Below are positions 4,225 to 23,528 of a stretch of 64,000 nt of DNA, one piece after another; within the stretch, counting starts at the first letter, position 1; each line of letters begins with the position of its first letter. Both the position numbers and the translations under genes were made by a program. This DNA is from Planctomycetota bacterium (GTDB lineage: Bacteria; Planctomycetota; JAJSAM01; JAJVHW01): the NCBI GenBank assembly GCA_965248445.1, contig CBDFJG010000001.1:96001-160000 (forward strand), read 5' to 3'. The notes beneath the pieces are model-generated. The model saw only the letters and a program-made list of their open reading frames with translations. It ran no database searches and was not told the origin of the DNA.

Positions 4225-4803
4225 TGGAGTTCCCCCGGTTCGGTGGACACCCGACCACTGAGGTTGGGAGGATGTCCAGATGCCCAGATCGAGACCACCG
4301 TACGACGAGGAGTACAAGCGCCAGATCGTCGAGTTGCACCGCGCCGGCCGGAGCGTGATGAGCCTCTGCCGCGAGTTCGAGCCGACGGAGATGACGATCC
4401 GCAAGTGGATCAAGCAGGCCGCGCTCGACGCCGGCGAGGGTGACGACGGCTTGACCACCGCGGAGCGCGATGAGCTGCGCAAGCTCAGACGAGATGTGCG
4501 CCACCTGCGCGAAGAGCGCGACATCTTGAAAAAAGCCGCGGCCTGGTTCGCTCGGGAGACGCGCTCGATCCCAGAGAAGGGTTCGAGTTCGTGAGCGACC
4601 ACCAGGCCGAGCACGACGTCGCCACCATGTGCCGCGTCCTCGGCGTCTCGAGGAGCGGATACTACGCGTGGCGGGGACGCGAGCCGTCGACCCGAACCTG
4701 CGAGGACGCGGCTCTCACGGCACGGATCCGCGCCATCCACGAGCGCTCTCGCCAGACGTACGGCTCGCCGAGGATCCACGCCGAGTTGCGCTACGACGGT
4801 GTT
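4225..4803 (+). mobile_element. IS3-family element, partial copy (left IR, orfA, 5' part of orfB)
   Basis: IRL TGGAGTTCCCCCGGTTCGGTGGACACCCG at 4225; orfB (4591-) is interrupted at 4803 by a second copy. Confidence 0.9.
4280..4594 (+). CDS. IS3-family OrfA (HTH_Tnp_1)
   Basis: PPYDEEYKRQIVEL...ERDILKKAAAWFA; A6G frameshift motif at 4529-4535. Confidence 0.9.
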   Translation: MPRSRPPYDEEYKRQIVELHRAGRSVMSLCREFEPTEMTIRKWIKQAALDAGEGDDGLTTAERDELRKLRRDVRHLREERDILKKAAAWFARETRSIPEKGSSS

Positions 4804-4858
4804 TGGAGTTCCCCCGGTTCGGTGGACACCCGACCACTGAGGTTGGGAGGATGTCCAG

Positions 4859-5173
4859 ATGCCCAGATCGAGACCACCGTACGACGAGGAGTACAAGCGC
4901 CAGATCGTCGAGTTGCACCGCGCCGGCCGGAGCGTGATGAGCCTGTGCCGCGAGTTCGAGCCGACGGAGATGACGATCCGCAAGTGGATCAAGCAGGCCG
5001 CGCTGGACGCCGGAGAGCGTGACGACGGCTTGACCACCGCGGAGCGCGATGAGCTGCGCAAGCTCAGACGAGATGTGCGCCGGCTGCGCGAGGAGCGCGA
5101 CATCTTGAAAAAAGCCGCGGCCTGGTTCGCTCGGGAGACGCGCTCGATCCCAGAGAAGGGTTCGGGTTCGTGA
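4859..5173 (+). CDS. IS3-family OrfA
   Basis: Near-identical to 4280-4594; A6G at 5108-5114. Confidence 0.9.
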   Translation: MPRSRPPYDEEYKRQIVELHRAGRSVMSLCREFEPTEMTIRKWIKQAALDAGERDDGLTTAERDELRKLRRDVRRLREERDILKKAAAWFARETRSIPEKGSGS

Positions 5174-6034
5174 GCGATCACCAGGCAGAGCACGACGTGG
5201 CCACCATGTGTCGGGTCCTCGGCGTCTCGAGGAGCGGGTACTACGCATCGCGCGGCCGTGCGCCCTCGAAGAGAGATCGCGAGGACGCTGCCCTGACCGA
5301 GCGCGTCCGCGAGATCCACGAGCGCTCTCGCCAGACGTACGGATCACCGCGCATCCATGCCGAGCTGCGCTACGAGGGCCTCCACATCGGTAGGAAGCGC
5401 GTCGAGCGCCTCATGCGCCAGGCTGGGATCGAGGGCGTGAGCCGCCGCAAGAGAGCCAAGACCACGAAGCGCTCGCAGCGTCAGGCGCCGGCCGCCGACC
5501 TGGTCGATCGCGACTTCACGGCCGACGCACCCGATCAGCTCTGGGTGGCCGACATCACGTACGTGCCGACCTGGACGGGGTTCCTGTACCTGGCGGTCGT
5601 CCTCGACGTCTGGAGCCGCCGGATCGTCGGCTGGTCCATGGCCACGACGCTCCACACCAAGATCGTGCTGGACGCACTCGAGATGGCCGTGCGCCAGCGC
5701 CAGCCCCTCGGAGTCGTCCACCACTCCGACCAGGGCTGCCAGTACACGTCGCTCGCCTTCGGGCGGCGCTGCAGAGAAGCGGGCGTCAGGCCGTCCATGG
5801 GATCGGTCGGAGACGCCTACGACAACGCCATGTGCGAGAGCTTCTTCGCCACGCTCGAGACCGAGTTGATCGACCGCACCAGCTTTTCGACCAAGTCCGC
5901 AGTCCGCAGCGCGGTTGGCGGTGTTCGACTTCATCGAGGGCTTCTACAATCCGCAGCGGCGACACTCCTCCATCGAGGACCTGTCGCCCATCGAGTTCGA
6001 GAGGCGGCGACGGCCGGAGGCCGCCGTATCATAG
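5170..6034 (+). pseudogene. IS3-family OrfB transposase, frameshifted by a 7-bp duplication
   Basis: WVADITYV, HHSDQG and DNAMCESFF motifs. Removing one AGTCCGC (5894-5907) restores ..AARLAVFDFIEGFYNPQRRHSS..* at 6034. Confidence 0.9.
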
Positions 6035-6067
6035 TCCCCGGGTGTCCACCGAACCGGGGGAACTCCA

Positions 6068-6298
6068 GTAAAGGAACTCCGGCGTGATCGCACTGGGCGT
6101 GATGCTGACTGTGACACCGTGCGCGGCAGCGAGGGCTTCCAGGCGCTCCGTGTGTGGTGCGCTGCAGTACGTCGCAAGTCGGGCCGCACCGTCCCCGGTC
6201 GCCAAGGCGAATGCCGCGCGGCCGCCGGAGCCGAGCAAGTGCTCCCAGGGTGGCTCGATGCAGGTCTCGTAGTAGACACCGCCGACAACAGAGATCAT
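6068..6298 (-). pseudogene. 5' fragment of a PfkB/ribokinase-like protein, truncated by IS3
   Basis: MISVVGGVYYETC..P.W..LLGSGGRAA.AL is a ribokinase-type N-terminus. ATGA overlap with the upstream gene; ends at the IS IR. Confidence 0.65.
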
Positions 6299-7320: not shown

Positions 7321-8990
7321 CCCGAATCGTTCACCAGCCGGGAATCTGAGCGGGCCGTCGTCTGTCTAAGTGCTCGTACTCGCTAGTACTTGCACCGACA
7401 GGAGCGCCGGCCCGATGACGACAGACTGTAGCCCGCAGGGGACCCTCTTCGCGGGCATCTGTGGACGCACCGCGGTGACGCGCTTCGACGCCGGTACCGT
7501 GACGAGCGACGGGGGCGTGCTGCTGCTCGAGCGGACCGATCGTCGCATCGATCTGCTCTCGCGGTTTGCGCGCTGCTTCGGGGACCACCGGGACCCGCGT
7601 CGGGTCGAGCACACGGTCGGCCAGATGCTGCGTCAGCGGGTCTTCGGGCTGTGCGCGGGCTACGAGGATCTGGTGGACCACGACCATGTCGGCAAGGACC
7701 CGCTGTTTGCCGCGGCGTGCGGCAAGCGCGAGGGTGCTCTGGCCACGCACCCGACGCTCTCGCGGCTCGAGACCACGCAGCTCGGCGCCACGGCACAGAC
7801 GCGCTACGCCAAGATCGAGATGGACCAGGAGCGCGTGGACAGCGTGCTCAGCGACGTCTTCTGCGAGGCCATGGGGCCGGAGGATCCGGGCCTGCTCGTG
7901 CTGGACCTGGACCACTCCGACGTGCGGCTGCACGGCCGGCAGGAGGGCCGCTTCTTCCACGGCTACTACGGGCACTACTGCTACCTGCCGCTGTACGTCT
8001 TCTGCGGCGAGCACCTCTTGCTCGCTCGGCTCCAGACCGCTGACAGAGATCCCGCGCGCGGAGTCGTGGACGAGCTCCGTGCGCTGGTCTTACGTCTGCG
8101 GCGCCGCTGGCCCCGGGCCAAGGTGCTCGTGCGCGCAGACTCGGGCTTTTGCCGCGAGGAGCTGATGGCCTGGTGCGAGGCCGCCGGCCACTTCTACCTG
8201 CTGGGCATGGCGCGCAATGAGCGCCTTGAGCGACACGTCGAAGACGCGCTCGATGAGGCCGCAGCCCGTGCCGTGCAGACCGGCCGAGCAGCCCGGGTCT
8301 TTCGCGACTTTGCCTGGACCACGCTGGGGAGCTGGAGCCAGAGGCGTCGCGTGGTCGCCAAGGCCGAGCACCTGCCGGGCGGCAAGCGCAATCCCCGCTT
8401 CGTGGTGACCAATCTGCCGCCTCGTAGCTGGAGCAGCAAGCGTCTCTACGAGCAGCTCTACTGCGCCCGGGGCGAGGCGGAGAATCGCATCAAGGAGCAG
8501 CAGCTCGAGCTCTTCGGCACCCGTCTGTCGGTGCACACGATGCAGGGCAACGCCGTGCGGATGGCCATGTCGGCCATGGCCTACGTCCTGACCTGTGCGC
8601 TGCGACGCATCGGTCTCGCCGGCACCGAGATGGCGCGTGCGCAAGCCGGCACGATCCGCCTGCGGCTGCTCAAGATCGGCGCGCTCGTGCGGATCACGAC
8701 GCGCCGGATCTGGGTCTCGATGTCCTCGTCGTGGCCCTGGCAGCACGTCTTCGAGCGCTGCGCGCAACGACTGCTGGCATCCCCGAAGCCGACCTGACGT
8801 CCCGCCGCGCCGTCCGCCACACCACCGCCCGGCCTACGGTCTGCCCACACCGCAGAATCCGCGCCGTTTCGGCCGCTCACTCGCGTTGCCCTTGTGGCAA
8901 CGACGACAGCATCCGCCCTCGCCTGGCCAAGATCTGACCCTGTGGACTCCGAAAGCACCGTCATCGCGACGTCTCGTGAACAGATGCGGC
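7321..8990 (+). mobile_element. IS1380-family element
   Basis: Imperfect IRs (CCCGAATCGTTCAC ... GTGAACAGATGCGGC); TAG on both flanks (7318-7320, 8991-8993). Confidence 0.9.
7415..8797 (+). CDS. IS1380-family transposase (DDE_Tnp_1_4)
   Basis: FDAG.VTSDGG.LLL, LHGRQEGRFFHGYYGHYCYLPL, VRADSGFCRE and YCARGEAENRIKEQQL motifs. Confidence 0.95.
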   Translation: MTTDCSPQGTLFAGICGRTAVTRFDAGTVTSDGGVLLLERTDRRIDLLSRFARCFGDHRDPRRVEHTVGQMLRQRVFGLCAGYEDLVDHDHVGKDPLFAAACGKREGALATHPTLSRLETTQLGATAQTRYAKIEMDQERVDSVLSDVFCEAMGPEDPGLLVLDLDHSDVRLHGRQEGRFFHGYYGHYCYLPLYVFCGEHLLLARLQTADRDPARGVVDELRALVLRLRRRWPRAKVLVRADSGFCREELMAWCEAAGHFYLLGMARNERLERHVEDALDEAAARAVQTGRAARVFRDFAWTTLGSWSQRRRVVAKAEHLPGGKRNPRFVVTNLPPRSWSSKRLYEQLYCARGEAENRIKEQQLELFGTRLSVHTMQGNAVRMAMSAMAYVLTCALRRIGLAGTEMARAQAGTIRLRLLKIGALVRITTRRIWVSMSSSWPWQHVFERCAQRLLASPKPT

Positions 8991-9837: not shown

Positions 9838-11655
9838 ATGGCGGATGACGGCTCCGGCCTGCTCGACCCCGTGGATCGTCCGATGCGGCGGCTGTTCCGC
9901 TACCTGCTGCCCCAGCGCGGCCGGCTGTCGTTCTCGGTCGCGTCGAGCATCCTGAACAAGCTATTCGATCTCATGCCGCCGCTGCTGGTGATGTGGTTCG
10001 TCGACATCGCCGGCGACAACCCGCCGGACTGGCTCGTGCGGCTGGCCGGCGACGGGGACCGTGGGCAAGCGGTCTGGCTGGGCGCCTTGTGCGTCGTGAT
10101 CTTCGCGTTCGAGAGCCTGTTCCAGTGGATGTACGGCTACGGGTTCATGACGCTCGCCCAGGACACGCAACACCGGCTGCGACTCGACGCGTACGAGACG
10201 ATGCAGTCGCGCGAGATGCGGTTCTTCGAAGAGCGCCGGCTCGGCCGGACTCTCTCCATGCTGAACGACGACGTCAATCAGCTCGAGCGTTTCCTCAACA
10301 CCGCGCTGTCCGACATCGTGCAACTGGTTGTGCTGGTGATCTTCGCGAGCTGGGCGCTCCTTGCCAGATCCACCGAACTCGCGATCGTGGGCCTCGTGCC
10401 GGTGCCGTTCATCATCTACGGCAGCCTGCGCTTCTCGAAGGCACTGGAGCCGCGCTACGCCAAGGTGCGCGTAGCAGTTGGGGAGCTCGCTTCGCGGCTC
10501 GAGAACAACATCGCCGGCATTCTCGTGATCAAGGGTTTCACCGCCGAGGCGAGCGAGCGCGAGCGCGTTCGTTCGGCGTCCGACGAGTACCGCCGCGTCA
10601 ACTACTCGGCCATCCGGCTCTCGACCGTGTTCGTCCCTCTGATTCGCATGGTGATCGCACTCGGGTTCGCGGCGTCGCTGGTGCTCGCCACGTGGTGGGC
10701 GGCGGCCGGTGACATCGAAGCCAGCACGATCGTGCTGTTCGGGATGATGATCCAGCGGCTGCTGTGGCCGCTGACGCGGCTCGGCACGACGTTCGACGAG
10801 TACCAGCGCGCTTCCGCCAGCGCGAAGCGCGTATTCAGTCTCCTCGACACGCCGTCCCGAGTGCGTGACCCGGAGGCACCCGCTGCATTCGACCGAGTGC
10901 GGGGCGACGTCGCGTTCGAGAACGTCAAGTTCGACTACCGGGGTGGCGAGAGCGTGCTCCGAGGTCTCAGTTTCTCGGCACGCGCCGGAGAGACGGTGGG
11001 CATCGCCGGTCCGACGGGTGCAGGCAAGTCGACTCTGGTCAAATTGCTGCTGCGCCTCTACGACGTCGACGACGGCGCGGTGACGATCGACGGTATCGAC
11101 GTGCGCACGGTGACGCAACGCGACCTTCGGCGGCAGATCGCTGTCGTCACGCAGGACGTCTATCTGTTCCACGGCACGATCCGCGAGAACATCGCGTACG
11201 GCGAACGGACGTCTGGCGGCACGCCGGACTTCGACGATGTCGTGCACGCGTCGCGCGTCGCACACCTGCACGAATTCGTGGTCTCGCTGCCGGGCGGCTA
11301 CGACACGATCGTCGGCGAACGCGGCATCAAGCTCTCCGGCGGACAGCGGCAGCGGCTCTCGCTGGCCCGCGCGATCCTGAAAGATGCACCGATCCTGGTG
11401 TTGGACGAGGCGACGTCGTCCGTGGACACCGAGACCGAACGGCGCATCCAGGAGAGCCTCGCGGAGATCACCGCCGGGCGCACGGCGCTCGTGATCGCGC
11501 ACCGGTTGTCGACGATCCGCGGCGCCGACCGCATCGTCGTGCTCGACCAGGGTCGCGTGGCCGAGGAAGGGAAGCACGACGAACTCGTGGCAACCGGCGG
11601 CCTGTACGCCGATCTGTGGAGCGTGCAGATCGGCACAGCCGAGGGCGTCGCCTGA
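9838..11655 (+). CDS. ABC exporter, fused permease/ATP-binding protein
   Basis: TM domain plus Walker A GPTGAGKS, LSGGQ and LVLDEATS. Confidence 0.95.
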   Translation: MADDGSGLLDPVDRPMRRLFRYLLPQRGRLSFSVASSILNKLFDLMPPLLVMWFVDIAGDNPPDWLVRLAGDGDRGQAVWLGALCVVIFAFESLFQWMYGYGFMTLAQDTQHRLRLDAYETMQSREMRFFEERRLGRTLSMLNDDVNQLERFLNTALSDIVQLVVLVIFASWALLARSTELAIVGLVPVPFIIYGSLRFSKALEPRYAKVRVAVGELASRLENNIAGILVIKGFTAEASERERVRSASDEYRRVNYSAIRLSTVFVPLIRMVIALGFAASLVLATWWAAAGDIEASTIVLFGMMIQRLLWPLTRLGTTFDEYQRASASAKRVFSLLDTPSRVRDPEAPAAFDRVRGDVAFENVKFDYRGGESVLRGLSFSARAGETVGIAGPTGAGKSTLVKLLLRLYDVDDGAVTIDGIDVRTVTQRDLRRQIAVVTQDVYLFHGTIRENIAYGERTSGGTPDFDDVVHASRVAHLHEFVVSLPGGYDTIVGERGIKLSGGQRQRLSLARAILKDAPILVLDEATSSVDTETERRIQESLAEITAGRTALVIAHRLSTIRGADRIVVLDQGRVAEEGKHDELVATGGLYADLWSVQIGTAEGVA

Positions 11656-11733
11656 CTGCAGCCTGCCCGACGGAAGACTTGGCAGACCCGCCGCGGATTG
11701 GCGATGCTCTCGACAGCGATCGGAGAGATGCCC

Positions 11734-11889
11734 ATGGGTTCGTTGCTCAAAGAGTTTTGGCTCTTCATCAAGGCAGAGAAGAAGTGGTGGTTGACGCCCC
11801 TACTCCTCGTCATGGGTTTGCTCGGGATCGTCGTCGCCGTGGCCGCGCTCAACCCCGCGCTCGCGCCATTCCTCTATCCGCTGATGTGA
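11734..11889 (+). CDS. DUF5989-family small membrane protein
   Basis: EFW.F....KKWWL.P....L.......APFLYPL pattern; RBS GGAGAG at 11722. Confidence 0.85.
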   Translation: MGSLLKEFWLFIKAEKKWWLTPLLLVMGLLGIVVAVAALNPALAPFLYPLM

Positions 11890-12022
11890 TCAACGCCCTG
11901 TTCCACCTCAGGGACGGCGAGGATGCCGCGACTCAGGTCTGAAGTTGACCTGGCGATAATCGAGCAGCCGTACACTCCGCCGACCGCCACGGCCTACGAC
12001 GGGAAACCGGCGCGCGCGACCG

Positions 12023-13420
12023 ATGCTCTTCCAGACACTCGAGTTCTTCGTTCTGCTCGCGGCGGTGATGCCGCTGAACCTGGTCTTGCGAGGCAAGGCG
12101 CGGCTCGGCTTCCTGCTGCTGACGAGCTACGTGTTCTACGGGTGGTTCAGCATCCCCCTGTGCGGGCTGATGGTGTTCTCGACCCTGCTCGATTTCACCG
12201 CGGCGCGTGGTATGACCGCGACGGACGACGAGCGCGTACGCAAACGCTGGCTGATCGCGTCGCTCGCAGGCAACCTCGGGATGCTGTTCGTGTTCAAGTA
12301 CACGAACTTCTTCCTCGAAACGGTCGGCGGCCTGTCGCAGTTGCTGTCCGGCACGGATCCGTTCCCGCGGTACGACATCATCCTGCCGCTCGGTATCAGC
12401 TTCTACACGTTCCAGACGCTCTCGTACTCGATCGACGTGTACCGCCGCCGCATCGACCGTCCGAGCGATCTGCTGACGTTCGCCACGTACGTCGCGTTCT
12501 TCCCACAACTGGTGGCCGGCCCGATCGTGCGCGCGAAGAGTCTGCTCCCGCAACTGCGTGATGGGCCGACGTTCAGTGAGAGCAACGTGCTGCGCGGCAT
12601 CGCGTTGGTCGGGTTCGGACTGGCGAAGAAGGTCGTCATCGCAGACAACCTTGCGCCCATGGTCAACGCGGTGTTCTCCGCGCCGCACGCCCACTCGCCG
12701 CTTGCGGTCCTCGTGGGCATCTATGCGTTCGCGTTCCAGATCTACTGCGACTTCTCGGGGTACTCCGACACGGCGCGCGGCCTCGGGTTCATGATGGGAT
12801 ACGACCTCGGGGACAACTTCCGCCAGCCGTACTTCGCGACGGGGATCCGCGACTTCTGGCGCCGCTGGCACATCTCTCTCTCGACGTGGCTGCGGGACTA
12901 CCTCTACATCCCGCTCGGCGGCAGTCGGGGGAGCGGACTGTTCACGATCCGGAACGTGATGATCACGATGCTCCTGGGCGGACTGTGGCACGGGGCGGCG
13001 TGGACATTCGTCATATGGGGTGCCATCCACGGGATCTGGATCGCGATAGAGAGAGTCGCCACCGGCAACCGCAAAGACGCCCCTGAACGGTCGCCGCTCG
13101 CGCGACTCGCGCTGCAATTCCTCACGTTCCAGGGCGTGTGCGTCACCTGGGTGTTCTTCCGCGCGACGGACTTCGGGAACGCGGCCGACGTGTTCGCGGC
13201 GCTGTTCCGCGGCGGCGACACCATCGTGCCGCTCGCGATGTGGCCGCTCGTGGCCATCCCGTCGATCCTGCTCGTGGACGCATTCGTGCAGCACGAGAGC
13301 GTCTGCGCGAGAGTGAGGGCTAGGCCGTTCCTCTTCTGGCTGACCGTGATCGTCACGCAGGCCCTGATCATCGCGTTCGGCGTGACGACCGCGACCGACT
13401 TCGTGTACTTCCAGTTCTGA
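12023..13420 (+). CDS. MBOAT O-acyltransferase (AlgI/PatA/DltB type)
   Basis: LPLGISFYTFQ, FFPQLVAGPIVR, FQIYCDFSGYSD, FWRRWHISLS and GLWHGA motifs; C-terminal FVYFQF. Confidence 0.95.
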   Translation: MLFQTLEFFVLLAAVMPLNLVLRGKARLGFLLLTSYVFYGWFSIPLCGLMVFSTLLDFTAARGMTATDDERVRKRWLIASLAGNLGMLFVFKYTNFFLETVGGLSQLLSGTDPFPRYDIILPLGISFYTFQTLSYSIDVYRRRIDRPSDLLTFATYVAFFPQLVAGPIVRAKSLLPQLRDGPTFSESNVLRGIALVGFGLAKKVVIADNLAPMVNAVFSAPHAHSPLAVLVGIYAFAFQIYCDFSGYSDTARGLGFMMGYDLGDNFRQPYFATGIRDFWRRWHISLSTWLRDYLYIPLGGSRGSGLFTIRNVMITMLLGGLWHGAAWTFVIWGAIHGIWIAIERVATGNRKDAPERSPLARLALQFLTFQGVCVTWVFFRATDFGNAADVFAALFRGGDTIVPLAMWPLVAIPSILLVDAFVQHESVCARVRARPFLFWLTVIVTQALIIAFGVTTATDFVYFQF

Positions 13421-13422
13421 CC

Positions 13423-14472
13423 GTGCCCGAACCGAACCATCTGCTGACCCTCCTCGCCTGGCTACGCCGCCGGGGGATCGCTCACGCCGTCGGCGGGCTG
13501 CTCGCGCTCATCGCCGTCGCGACACCGCTGGAGGGGCTGTTCCGCGCAACCGACCGCTTCGGGCTCGTGCATCCGCAGTTCGCGATCGAGTCGAAGAAGC
13601 GCGGACTGTGGGTCGGCAAACTGTGGACGCCGCGGGAGTTCATGGCGGTTTCGGGCTTCAACGAGGATGGCATCCGCGGCCCCTCGCTGGACGCCCGGCC
13701 GGGCGAGCGGCACAGAGTCGTCGTCGCCGGCGACAGCTTCGTCGAGGGGCGCCAAGTCCCACACGCGCGGACGTTCCCGATCGTCTCGCAGTCGGAGCTC
13801 GACGGCGTGCGCGTCGTTCCCGTGCGCGTCGGCAACCACGCGTTCCACGAGCGACCGGAGAGGTTCCTCGACTTCTACGAGCGCCTCTTCGACGGTGGCA
13901 ACGGCCGGCCGGCCGCCGACGGCGTGGTGTTCAGCCTCCGGGAGTGGCCGCTGGTCCAGACGCGCCCGCCGCGCCACGCGATCCAGAAAGCCCTGTTCAA
14001 CCGGAGCGGTCTTCGACGCTTCCTCGAGCGCTACTCGATCGCGTCACTGGATGTCGTGGCGTACACGTGCAGGCGGTTGCGAGAGTGGGCCGAGTCGTCC
14101 AACGTGTCGCTGGAAGGCACGGAGGCGGCCCGCCGCGAGACGACCGAAGCGATGATTCACTCGACGCTCGATGTGATCGAGGTGCACGCTCTCAAGGAGA
14201 AACTCCGCCTGGGCGTTCACTACATTCCCGCGGTGCCAGAGGTGCAGGCGGCGCGCCGGGGCATGCCGCCCTCGTGGCACCCCGTCGACTCACTACGCGC
14301 CATCTGCGCGGAACGGGACATCCCGTTCGAGGACGCCACGCGCGACGTCACCGAACACGGGGGGGCGAGTCCGTTCTTCGCGTACGACGGGCACCCCACG
14401 GAGGCCGGTCATCGCGCGATGGCTCCTAGCCTGGTGCGCTTGCTCGAACGGATGGGATACGCCCGCGACTGA
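13423..14472 (+). CDS. SGNH/GDSL-family (AlgJ/AlgX-like) acyltransferase/hydrolase
   Basis: GDSF block I and DGHP...GH block V; N-terminal TM; 2 bp after the MBOAT stop. Confidence 0.8.
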   Translation: MPEPNHLLTLLAWLRRRGIAHAVGGLLALIAVATPLEGLFRATDRFGLVHPQFAIESKKRGLWVGKLWTPREFMAVSGFNEDGIRGPSLDARPGERHRVVVAGDSFVEGRQVPHARTFPIVSQSELDGVRVVPVRVGNHAFHERPERFLDFYERLFDGGNGRPAADGVVFSLREWPLVQTRPPRHAIQKALFNRSGLRRFLERYSIASLDVVAYTCRRLREWAESSNVSLEGTEAARRETTEAMIHSTLDVIEVHALKEKLRLGVHYIPAVPEVQAARRGMPPSWHPVDSLRAICAERDIPFEDATRDVTEHGGASPFFAYDGHPTEAGHRAMAPSLVRLLERMGYARD

Positions 14473-14480
14473 CCGTCGAT

Positions 14481-15905
14481 TCACTGATCGCGAATGAGGT
14501 CGGCGGTAGCGAGTGACACGCCTTCGGGCGGGTCGTCCTTGTTCTGCTCCCACCACTTGCGGGCTGCCTTCGCCTTGCGGCGCCGCTCCGCGTGCGACTG
14601 ATCCTGCGTGACGTCGAAGTCCTCGGTGGTGATCTCGCGCAGCGCGAAGTTGGCCTGCTGCGCGACGTACGCCTCCTTGTCCTCGAGCGCGTCGATCAGG
14701 TATGGCGTCGCATTCCATGCCCTCAGCTGGCTGAGTGAGCGCGCGCATGCCCGGCGCACGAGGAAGTGTTTGTCGTTGACGAGCGCCGAGGACAGCGCGG
14801 GGATCGCGGCGGGATCACCCATCCAGCCGAGATCGTTCGCTGCAGGGAAGCGCACGCTGTCCTCGCCCGAATCGAGCAGCGCCTTCGCCAGGCGCGCCAC
14901 CTCAGCGTTGACCTCGGGCACGACCGGGCCGTTGCCTCCGGCCTCCATCCCCCCGCCCTCGACAGGAGGCTCTGCGCCGCCGCCGGCCGGCGGATCGGCG
15001 CGCTCGGGCGGCGGGACCGGACGCGACGCGACGTCACGCACGCGCTCTGACATCTCGTCGAGGCGGCCCTCGAGCCGGGACAGCCGACCTTCGAGTGCGA
15101 CGTCGGCCTTGGCGAGTTCCGTGCGGACGCCCACGAGCTCTCCGCGGATGGCGTCGAGCTGCAACTCCAAGTCGTCGGTCATCCGGTCGAGTCGGCGGTT
15201 CGTCGCCTCGCGCTGCTCGCCGCTCGTGTCAGCGGGGATGCGGGCCGTCATGTCCGCGAAGCGGGCATCGAGTGATTTCTCGAGCATCGCCACGCGGCCC
15301 TGCAGCGGGTCTTCCGTCTTCGACTTCATGCCGTCGACCATCTGCCCCACGCCATAACCAATTCCCGCGGCGAGACCTGCGACCAGTAAGAACATCACGG
15401 CCGAGCGCGCGAACCCGCCGCCACTACCGGACGATGCGCGCACGCGCACCACCGCAGCGCGGCAGTTCTGGCAGGTGACCTTGTCTCCCTCGCTGAGCGC
15501 CTTGCCCGTGACGACGTGCGAGTGCGGGACCATCGCCGCGCAGACGGTGCAGCGCAGCGGCCCGACCGGGTCGTCGGCCTCGACGTCCGCGGCCATCTCC
15601 GCCTCGACCGCCTCACGACGGGCGGCGCGTTCCCCGGGGTCGGCCTTCGTGCAGATGGCGCAGTGCAGGGAGCCGTACTCCCGCCGTGCCCGGCCGGAGC
15701 GCACGTCGGTCACGGGCACCGAGATGCGGCAGTTCGCGCAGAACAGGAGCTCCAGGTCACCACCTTCCGCGGTGTCGTCGCTGCCGGACTGCGCGGACCG
15801 ATGTTCAGCGCAGACGACCTTGCCGCTGTCGTCCCGCGCGTCGCCGGAATCCACCGTCGCGTTCGGCACGGACACGCCGCAGACATGACAGAAATGGAGT
15901 TCCAT
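14481..15905 (-). CDS. Membrane protein: three Cys-rich Zn-finger-like repeats, TM, coiled coil, C-terminal HEAT repeats
   Basis: CHVC..CAEH, CANC..CAIC, CTVC..CQNC; TM FLLVAGLAAGIGYG; HEAT VRRACARSL / LIDALED. Confidence 0.8.
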   Translation of the reverse strand: MELHFCHVCGVSVPNATVDSGDARDDSGKVVCAEHRSAQSGSDDTAEGGDLELLFCANCRISVPVTDVRSGRARREYGSLHCAICTKADPGERAARREAVEAEMAADVEADDPVGPLRCTVCAAMVPHSHVVTGKALSEGDKVTCQNCRAAVVRVRASSGSGGGFARSAVMFLLVAGLAAGIGYGVGQMVDGMKSKTEDPLQGRVAMLEKSLDARFADMTARIPADTSGEQREATNRRLDRMTDDLELQLDAIRGELVGVRTELAKADVALEGRLSRLEGRLDEMSERVRDVASRPVPPPERADPPAGGGAEPPVEGGGMEAGGNGPVVPEVNAEVARLAKALLDSGEDSVRFPAANDLGWMGDPAAIPALSSALVNDKHFLVRRACARSLSQLRAWNATPYLIDALEDKEAYVAQQANFALREITTEDFDVTQDQSHAERRRKAKAARKWWEQNKDDPPEGVSLATADLIRDQ

Positions 15906-16003
15906 GACCGTTCGCCCCTCCGTCGTAAGTCTACCGGGCATCGCTCCTCCGGGGCGCGGGCGTGGTTTCCCCTCGGAAGAGCCTCGACGCCGCAGGAGGC
16001 GAC

Positions 16004-16018
16004 GCAAGCCGCATGCCC
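16004..16018 (-). promoter_or_regulatory. Putative sigma54 (-24/-12) promoter for the Zn-finger/HEAT gene
   Basis: GGGCATGCGGCTTGC = GG-N10-GC with TTGC, about 100 bp upstream of the ATG at 15905. Confidence 0.6.

Positions 16019-18236: not shown

Positions 18237-23528
<5,292 letters not shown>

Follow-up and report, generated by a model that had tools for sequence, protein, structure and literature searches.

What does a shuttle-like membrane peptide serve when its gene lies directly in front of an MBOAT gene? This question is raised by the window, the whole 64,000-nucleotide stretch of Planctomycetota DNA that we analyzed and within which all positions are counted unless a contig or locus is named. 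On its forward strand, a 51-amino-acid (aa) peptide with a single transmembrane segment and the C-terminus APFLYPLM (11734-11889) is followed, 133 nt past its stop, by a 465-aa MBOAT ending in DFVYFQF (12023-13420) and, 2 nt after the MBOAT stop, by a 349-aa SGNH-fold protein (13423-14472). The sequence-only reading had pointed out these three genes and both tails, all of which we recovered, and had taken the peptide for a DltX-type tyrosine shuttle within an MBOAT/SGNH cluster. The FXYXXF tyrosine shuttle of DltX and PatA is described in PMC12148441, according to which other MBOAT pathways have no DltX-like microprotein. As portrayed there, DltX, which works with the MBOAT DltB and the SGNH protein DltD in teichoic acid D-alanylation, has in common with our peptide the single-pass microprotein build, a C-terminal F-x-Y-x-x-F hexapeptide, and an SGNH partner.

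By family, the peptide is a DUF5989/SxtK protein. It matched PF19451 with an E value of 1e-15 and 57.8 bits (cut-off 27) over the whole model (positions 2-48 of 49), and UniRef lists 54-aa PF19451 proteins as SxtK. Its gene, the only DUF5989 copy in the source genome, is preceded by a GGAG at 11722-11725; an alternative ATG at 11728 would yield a 53-aa product, and scanning for promoters and terminators brought up no signal beyond the chance level. Hydropathy revealed one hydrophobic segment (residues 20-38), and the structure model, with a mean pLDDT of 90, consisted of an amphipathic helix (2-15), a KKWW stretch, a membrane-spanning helix (20-39), and a helical tail (41-50). No solved structure resembled the peptide (best E 0.15). 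The C-terminal hexapeptide FLYPLM (11869-11886) contains Tyr48 (codon 11875-11877), the predicted carrier residue by analogy with the FXYXXF motif as set out in PMC12148441.

The two genes behind the peptide, separated by 2 nt, have the appearance of an ordinary PatA/PatB-type pair. The MBOAT (PF03062, E 7e-31), the only full one found in the source genome, has the MBOAT domain, the catalytic His, and the fused Tyr tail of the AlgI/PatA type: His323 aligned with the His of the GFWHG motif of DltB, and the tail FVYFQF carries Tyr462. With these features and an SGNH gene directly behind, the pair at 12023-14472 resembles PatA/PatB and AlgI/AlgJ/AlgX; unlike here, a free peptide is not part of those systems. 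The SGNH protein starts with a membrane helix and has both the GDS nucleophile motif and the D-x-H motif of its family, as G103-D104-S105 and D322/H324 were invariant in a 29-sequence alignment whose profile matched solved SGNH, AlgJ, and AlgX proteins; its Pfam match fell below the cut-off (E 0.009), and a search of 40 relatives yielded no close orthologue. Given the 2-nt gap, it is most likely the partner of the MBOAT, an assignment that sequence by itself does not fix.

We found the tail tyrosine to be invariant at position -4 of the family C-terminus, a check that the sequence-only reading had proposed. It was present in 77/77 distinct closed ORFs from 80 metagenome loci, a set collected with an N-terminal pattern and subsequently ordered by tblastn score against the full-length peptide, so that its selection was not wholly blind to the tail. 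The same held for 43 of 44 members from genomes of the phylum, with the 44th having its Tyr at -3, and for all 26 further hits from 20 additional stretches, weak members included; motif counts from sets selected on the tail or on top scores are biased and were left out of this main test. Phe never substituted for the Tyr in the members examined, while the neighboring tail positions varied among hydrophobic residues, the present member ending in Met rather than in the Phe of the F-x-Y-x-x-F hexapeptide. Conservation alone does not make Tyr48 the carrier, because Trp19, Pro22, and Phe46 are equally invariant across DUF5989, where the mean column identity amounts to 61%. A comparison of a profile of 71 DUF5989 members with a profile of 23 MBOAT C-termini gave 31 bits. 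Removing the final six columns lowered this score to 16 bits, and shuffling them left it at 23 bits or less in 28 of 30 trials. The likeness to MBOAT C-termini thus lies in the tail alone and depends on the order of its positions. Among 2,836 genes called in the source genome with a crude script, just two, those of the peptide and the MBOAT described here, ended in F-[ILVM]-Y-x-x-[FILMV].

The tail is predicted to face outward, since the mean net charge before the DUF5989 membrane helix is +2.3 and 117 of 121 members have no Lys or Arg after it. A cytoplasmic C-terminus, named earlier as evidence against a shuttle, is thus not what the prediction gives: hydropathy, charge bias, fusion topology, and the helices of the model all favor a DltX-type arrangement of a single membrane helix with its tail outside the cytoplasm.

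The fusions in question occur in five genomes, where a single ORF starts with a helix and an SGNH domain and continues through linker helices into DUF5989 (L256:3752-6079; L257:4548-6122; L259:6107-7711; L260:6091-7740; L261:5837-7387) and adjoins genes for a carbamoyltransferase and SxtJ. Three of the fusions have three predicted linker helices and the other two have two; with three, the tail would lie on the SGNH side. They came from a search for long open frames ending in DUF5989, for which 20 stretches were fetched and 5 held true SGNH fusions; the other long frames ending in DUF5989 gave no family match explaining their length. Nothing else ties the peptide as firmly to SGNH enzymes as these fusions do. 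Extra free DUF5989 copies follow the fusion in four of the five loci, and the SxtJ-like partners of the fusions end differently (e.g., ARRQA). An SxtJ-like frame joined to DUF5989 (P0183) was set aside as a single record that may be a frameshift. Owing to the invariant Tyr in the DltX/PatA register, the outward tail predicted from the charge bias, and the five SGNH-DUF5989 fusions, the idea that DUF5989 is a shuttle peptide is well supported; the accompanying idea of a DltX-like service to the neighboring MBOAT is not supported by the survey of gene neighborhoods.

Around DUF5989, we found carbamoyltransferases instead of MBOATs. Among 83 other DUF5989 loci, a NodU/SxtI-type carbamoyltransferase was encoded nearby in 76, SxtJ in 74, and an SGNH protein in 48 (none being detected in the other 35), which confirmed the usual carbamoyltransferase/SxtJ/SGNH context cited in the sequence-only reading. 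An MBOAT was found in 1 of the 83, and there together with a carbamoyltransferase and SxtJ. The 83 loci were those counted from 178 examined, had at least 5 kb on each side, and came from the phylum (16), metagenomes (17), and named genomes (50), with two of them overlapping on one contig; 41 short loci were left out of the count, and the neighbor profiles were seeded from some of the same loci and checked by Pfam. Conversely, DUF5989 was present in 0/20 related MBOAT loci, in which the MBOAT profile recovered 22 MBOATs and so works as a detector; all 22 had their own tail, and nine SGNH hits adjoined them. DltX is encoded with a tail-less MBOAT, whereas the MBOAT adjacent to our peptide keeps its own tail. 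The peptide is DltX-like in motif and topology but lacks such a tail-less partner, and its own family goes with a carbamoyltransferase and SxtJ rather than with an MBOAT and a carrier protein. No DltX family appeared among 25 of the 27 Pfam families listed for the 71 DUF5989 members (E up to 1), with homology judged by Pfam matches.

The same pattern held for whole genomes. In a set of 41, DUF5989 was present in 24 and absent in 17, and a carbamoyltransferase scoring at least 537 bits, a line drawn after seeing the data, was found in 23/24 of the former and 0/17 of the latter (best there 466 bits); the 24th genome has its carbamoyltransferase in two pieces beside its DUF5989. SxtJ occurred in 16/24 versus 0/17, and MBOATs in 18/24 versus 10/17. 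Across these genomes, DUF5989 goes with the SxtI-type carbamoyltransferase and SxtJ and not with MBOATs; the counts are descriptions rather than tests, given the relatedness of the genomes and the incompleteness of some. In genomes of the same family as the source, DUF5989 lay beside carbamoyltransferase and SxtJ genes in 7/7, two of these stretches ending close to the peptide gene. The source genome itself has an intact-looking SxtI-type carbamoyltransferase gene and its one SxtJ copy at a single locus on another contig (G000:C3:298759-301019, with SxtJ at 298759-299205 and the carbamoyltransferase at 299208-301019), and the peptide gene is therefore separated from its partners; stand-alone DUF5989 genes also occur in several other genomes. 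Two of the same-family genomes (L270, L271) have second DUF5989 copies beside SGNH genes, with no carbamoyltransferase within the fetched stretch. The family is large, with ~6,000 clusters at 50% identity, and is present in 184 of 401 genomes of the phylum.

The partner enzyme of DUF5989 matched the structures of GdmN and TobZ, O-carbamoyltransferases of the CmcH/NodU family, with E values from 1e-100 to 1e-83; a novobiocin enzyme is a further solved relative. These relatives act directly on small molecules, and TobZ-type chemistry forms carbamoyl-adenylate from ATP and carbamoyl phosphate. Unlike them, the DUF5989-linked subfamily has a conserved helix pair at residues 69-102, often a C-terminal F-x-L-D, and two membrane proteins alongside. 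A signature at residues 68-102, over the two predicted helices, was found in 49/71 linked carbamoyltransferases versus 0/4 other paralogues of the source genome. The enzyme has no signal peptide and no known swinging arm. Across phyla, the mean column identity was 59% for the linked carbamoyltransferases and 18% for the neighboring SGNH proteins, and a conserved carbamoyltransferase next to diverse SGNH proteins fits one shared carrier serving many final acceptors. An SxtJ alignment showed no invariant residue. It did show a conserved SYW motif and a final residue that is F, Y, or W in 159/170 members (often Y-x-R-Q-F).

The same four gene families make up sxtI-sxtJ-sxtK-sxtL of the cyanobacterial saxitoxin clusters, where the 165-bp sxtK matches the 54-aa PF19451 proteins; unlike the saxitoxin genes, the DUF5989 module occurs across many phyla, frequently within gene clusters for envelope glycans, and its carriers include Bradyrhizobium, Leisingera, and Flagellimonas. 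In the gene descriptions of PMC2684587, PMC2679770, and 10.64898/2026.06.11.731795, SxtJ and SxtK are listed as hypothetical or unknown or as acting with SxtI, with no mechanism given there, and SxtL, the SGNH protein of the cluster, is put forward as a decarbamoylase in PMC2679770, which leaves this proposal untested. A search of the main texts of openly available papers found none on DUF5989 or on SGNH-linked periplasmic carbamoylation, and none that describes the relay proposed below.

We suggest that the DUF5989/SxtK tyrosine likely carries a carbamoyl group from the SxtI/NodU-type carbamoyltransferase, with the help of SxtJ, to SGNH enzymes that would modify acceptors outside the cytoplasm. 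For the locus as a whole, we lean toward an MBOAT-free carbamoyl-tyrosine relay whose peptide gene has been parted from its partners and lies beside an ordinary MBOAT/SGNH pair. This reading builds directly on the family membership, the conserved tail, the co-occurrence with carbamoyltransferase and SxtJ, and the natural SGNH fusions, and from these we infer the chemistry and the individual steps. The cytoplasmic carbamoyltransferase would make carbamoyl-adenylate from ATP and carbamoyl phosphate, as TobZ does, and would dock on the membrane via its conserved helix pair (residues 69-102) and SxtJ. The uncharged tail of the peptide would then dip into the membrane-docked complex, where Tyr48 would be carbamoylated, and would deliver the carbamoyl to the Ser of an SGNH enzyme, as DltX does to DltD, after which the SGNH enzyme would carbamoylate an envelope glycan or an exported molecule. 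The MBOAT with its own tail would run a separate, ordinary acyl relay with the SGNH protein behind it. The proposal that two tyrosine shuttles at this locus serve two acyl groups may thus still hold cell-wide, with an acyl group moving via the MBOAT tail and a carbamoyl group via the peptide, albeit as two separate systems.

The weak step of this relay is loading, as the enzyme is cytoplasmic, the tail is predicted to lie outside, and SxtJ has no invariant residue. The 35 loci with no SGNH gene detected nearby and the published view of SxtL as a decarbamoylase also speak against the relay. MBOATs reach an outward tail via their membrane-embedded active site. If the relay holds, it would give a function to the widespread DUF5989 microprotein and to SxtJ, would carry the tyrosine-shuttle principle beyond acyl esters to carbamates and beyond MBOATs to another kind of loader, and would lead one to expect carbamoylated envelope molecules in many phyla. 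SxtJ and SxtK, whose roles have lacked an explanation, would gain a mechanism, and the adjacent SGNH genes that are annotated as hydrolases may encode transferases.

More tentatively, and as something conceivable rather than probable, the module could represent a third route for moving activated groups across the bacterial inner membrane, without MBOAT or AT3. A membrane-docked soluble, ATP-dependent enzyme would load carbamoyl onto the DUF5989/SxtK tyrosine with SxtJ, and one donor module would feed many dispersed SGNH transferases (13 in the source genome), such that the SGNH protein behind the MBOAT could use either an acyl or a carbamoyl shuttle. That protein scored 70 bits on a profile of DUF5989-neighboring SGNH proteins, where nine MBOAT-linked SGNH proteins scored 21-135 bits, and 35 bits on an MBOAT-linked profile built from seven sequences only; because both kinds score on the same profile, the score cannot assign it to the carbamoyl or the MBOAT system. 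All 13 genes for SGNH proteins of this kind lie dispersed in a source genome with one DUF5989, one SxtJ, and one MBOAT.

Of the competing explanations, the one that fares best, though we consider it rather unlikely, makes the peptide a structural subunit for assembling or anchoring the complex of carbamoyltransferase and SxtJ; the aromatic tail of the peptide would recruit the SGNH enzyme, with no covalent tyrosine intermediate. The high conservation of the entire peptide, with Trp19, Pro22, and Phe46 as invariant as Tyr48, is in line with such a role, the SGNH fusions and the co-occurrence would suit an adaptor equally well, and an outward tail would not need to be loaded from the cytoplasm. 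However, a purely structural aromatic tail leaves unexplained why Phe never takes the place of the Tyr when adjacent positions vary among hydrophobics, and why the Tyr has the same register and the same spacing from the C-terminus as in the proven PatA/DltX shuttle; it also leaves open how carbamoyl would reach the SGNH enzyme.

Quite improbable is a membrane anchor, in which SxtJ and the peptide would hold the carbamoyltransferase at the inner leaflet for direct modification of a lipid-linked or small-molecule acceptor, and the SGNH proteins would remove or edit the group outside. Direct action on small molecules by the solved relatives GdmN, TobZ, and a novobiocin enzyme speaks for it, as does the sxtIJKL proposal in PMC2679770, in which SxtI with SxtJ and SxtK forms the transferase and SxtL is the decarbamoylase. 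Yet an anchor explains neither the invariant outward Tyr in shuttle register nor the SGNH fusions, and the conservation of the enzyme across very different clusters fits poorly with varied small-molecule acceptors.

Finally, a role of the peptide as an additional, free-standing acyl shuttle that serves the adjacent MBOAT in the way DltX serves DltB appears very improbable: the DltX precedent, the shared strand with 133 nt between the genes, the only two motif-ending genes of the genome lying side by side, which may be functional, and a peptide gene located away from its usual partners, unlike in the same-family genomes, are outweighed by the near absence of MBOATs around DUF5989 and of DUF5989 around MBOATs, by the MBOAT having its own tail, and by a genome that keeps an intact-looking carbamoyltransferase and SxtJ with a single DUF5989, a gene that stands alone elsewhere as well.

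Returning to the carbamoyl-tyrosine relay, the position of the peptide gene beside the MBOAT in the source genome is probably incidental; the side-by-side position of the two motif-ending genes is striking, yet it is what the window was singled out for, and it recurs once in the 83 loci. A move of the peptide gene driven by an insertion sequence is possible. The window contains tandem IS3-like transposase pieces (4280-6087) and a 475-aa transposase-like ORF (7370-8797), presumably IS1380-like, one further copy of which lies directly behind SxtJ on contig C3. As this ORF has 77 matches in the genome, its nearness proves nothing about such a move. On contig C4 of the source genome (G000:C4:1994324-1999924), a HEAT-hydrolase and a helicase gene lie ~60 nt apart with no cassette between them, and the same two genes flank a DUF5989-carbamoyltransferase-SxtJ cassette in another genome (G064). 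Directly upstream of the peptide gene, an MsbA-like ABC exporter is encoded on the same strand (9838-11655), which we note as context only. Downstream of the SGNH gene follow a 508-aa protein (14481-16007) in which repeated zinc-finger-like CxxC motifs are combined with a membrane helix, a coiled region, and HEAT repeats at the C-terminus, and a 1,763-aa ORF (18237-23528) that, by eye, appears to fuse a protein kinase, an AAA/TPR region, a GAF domain, and a sigma-54 activator.
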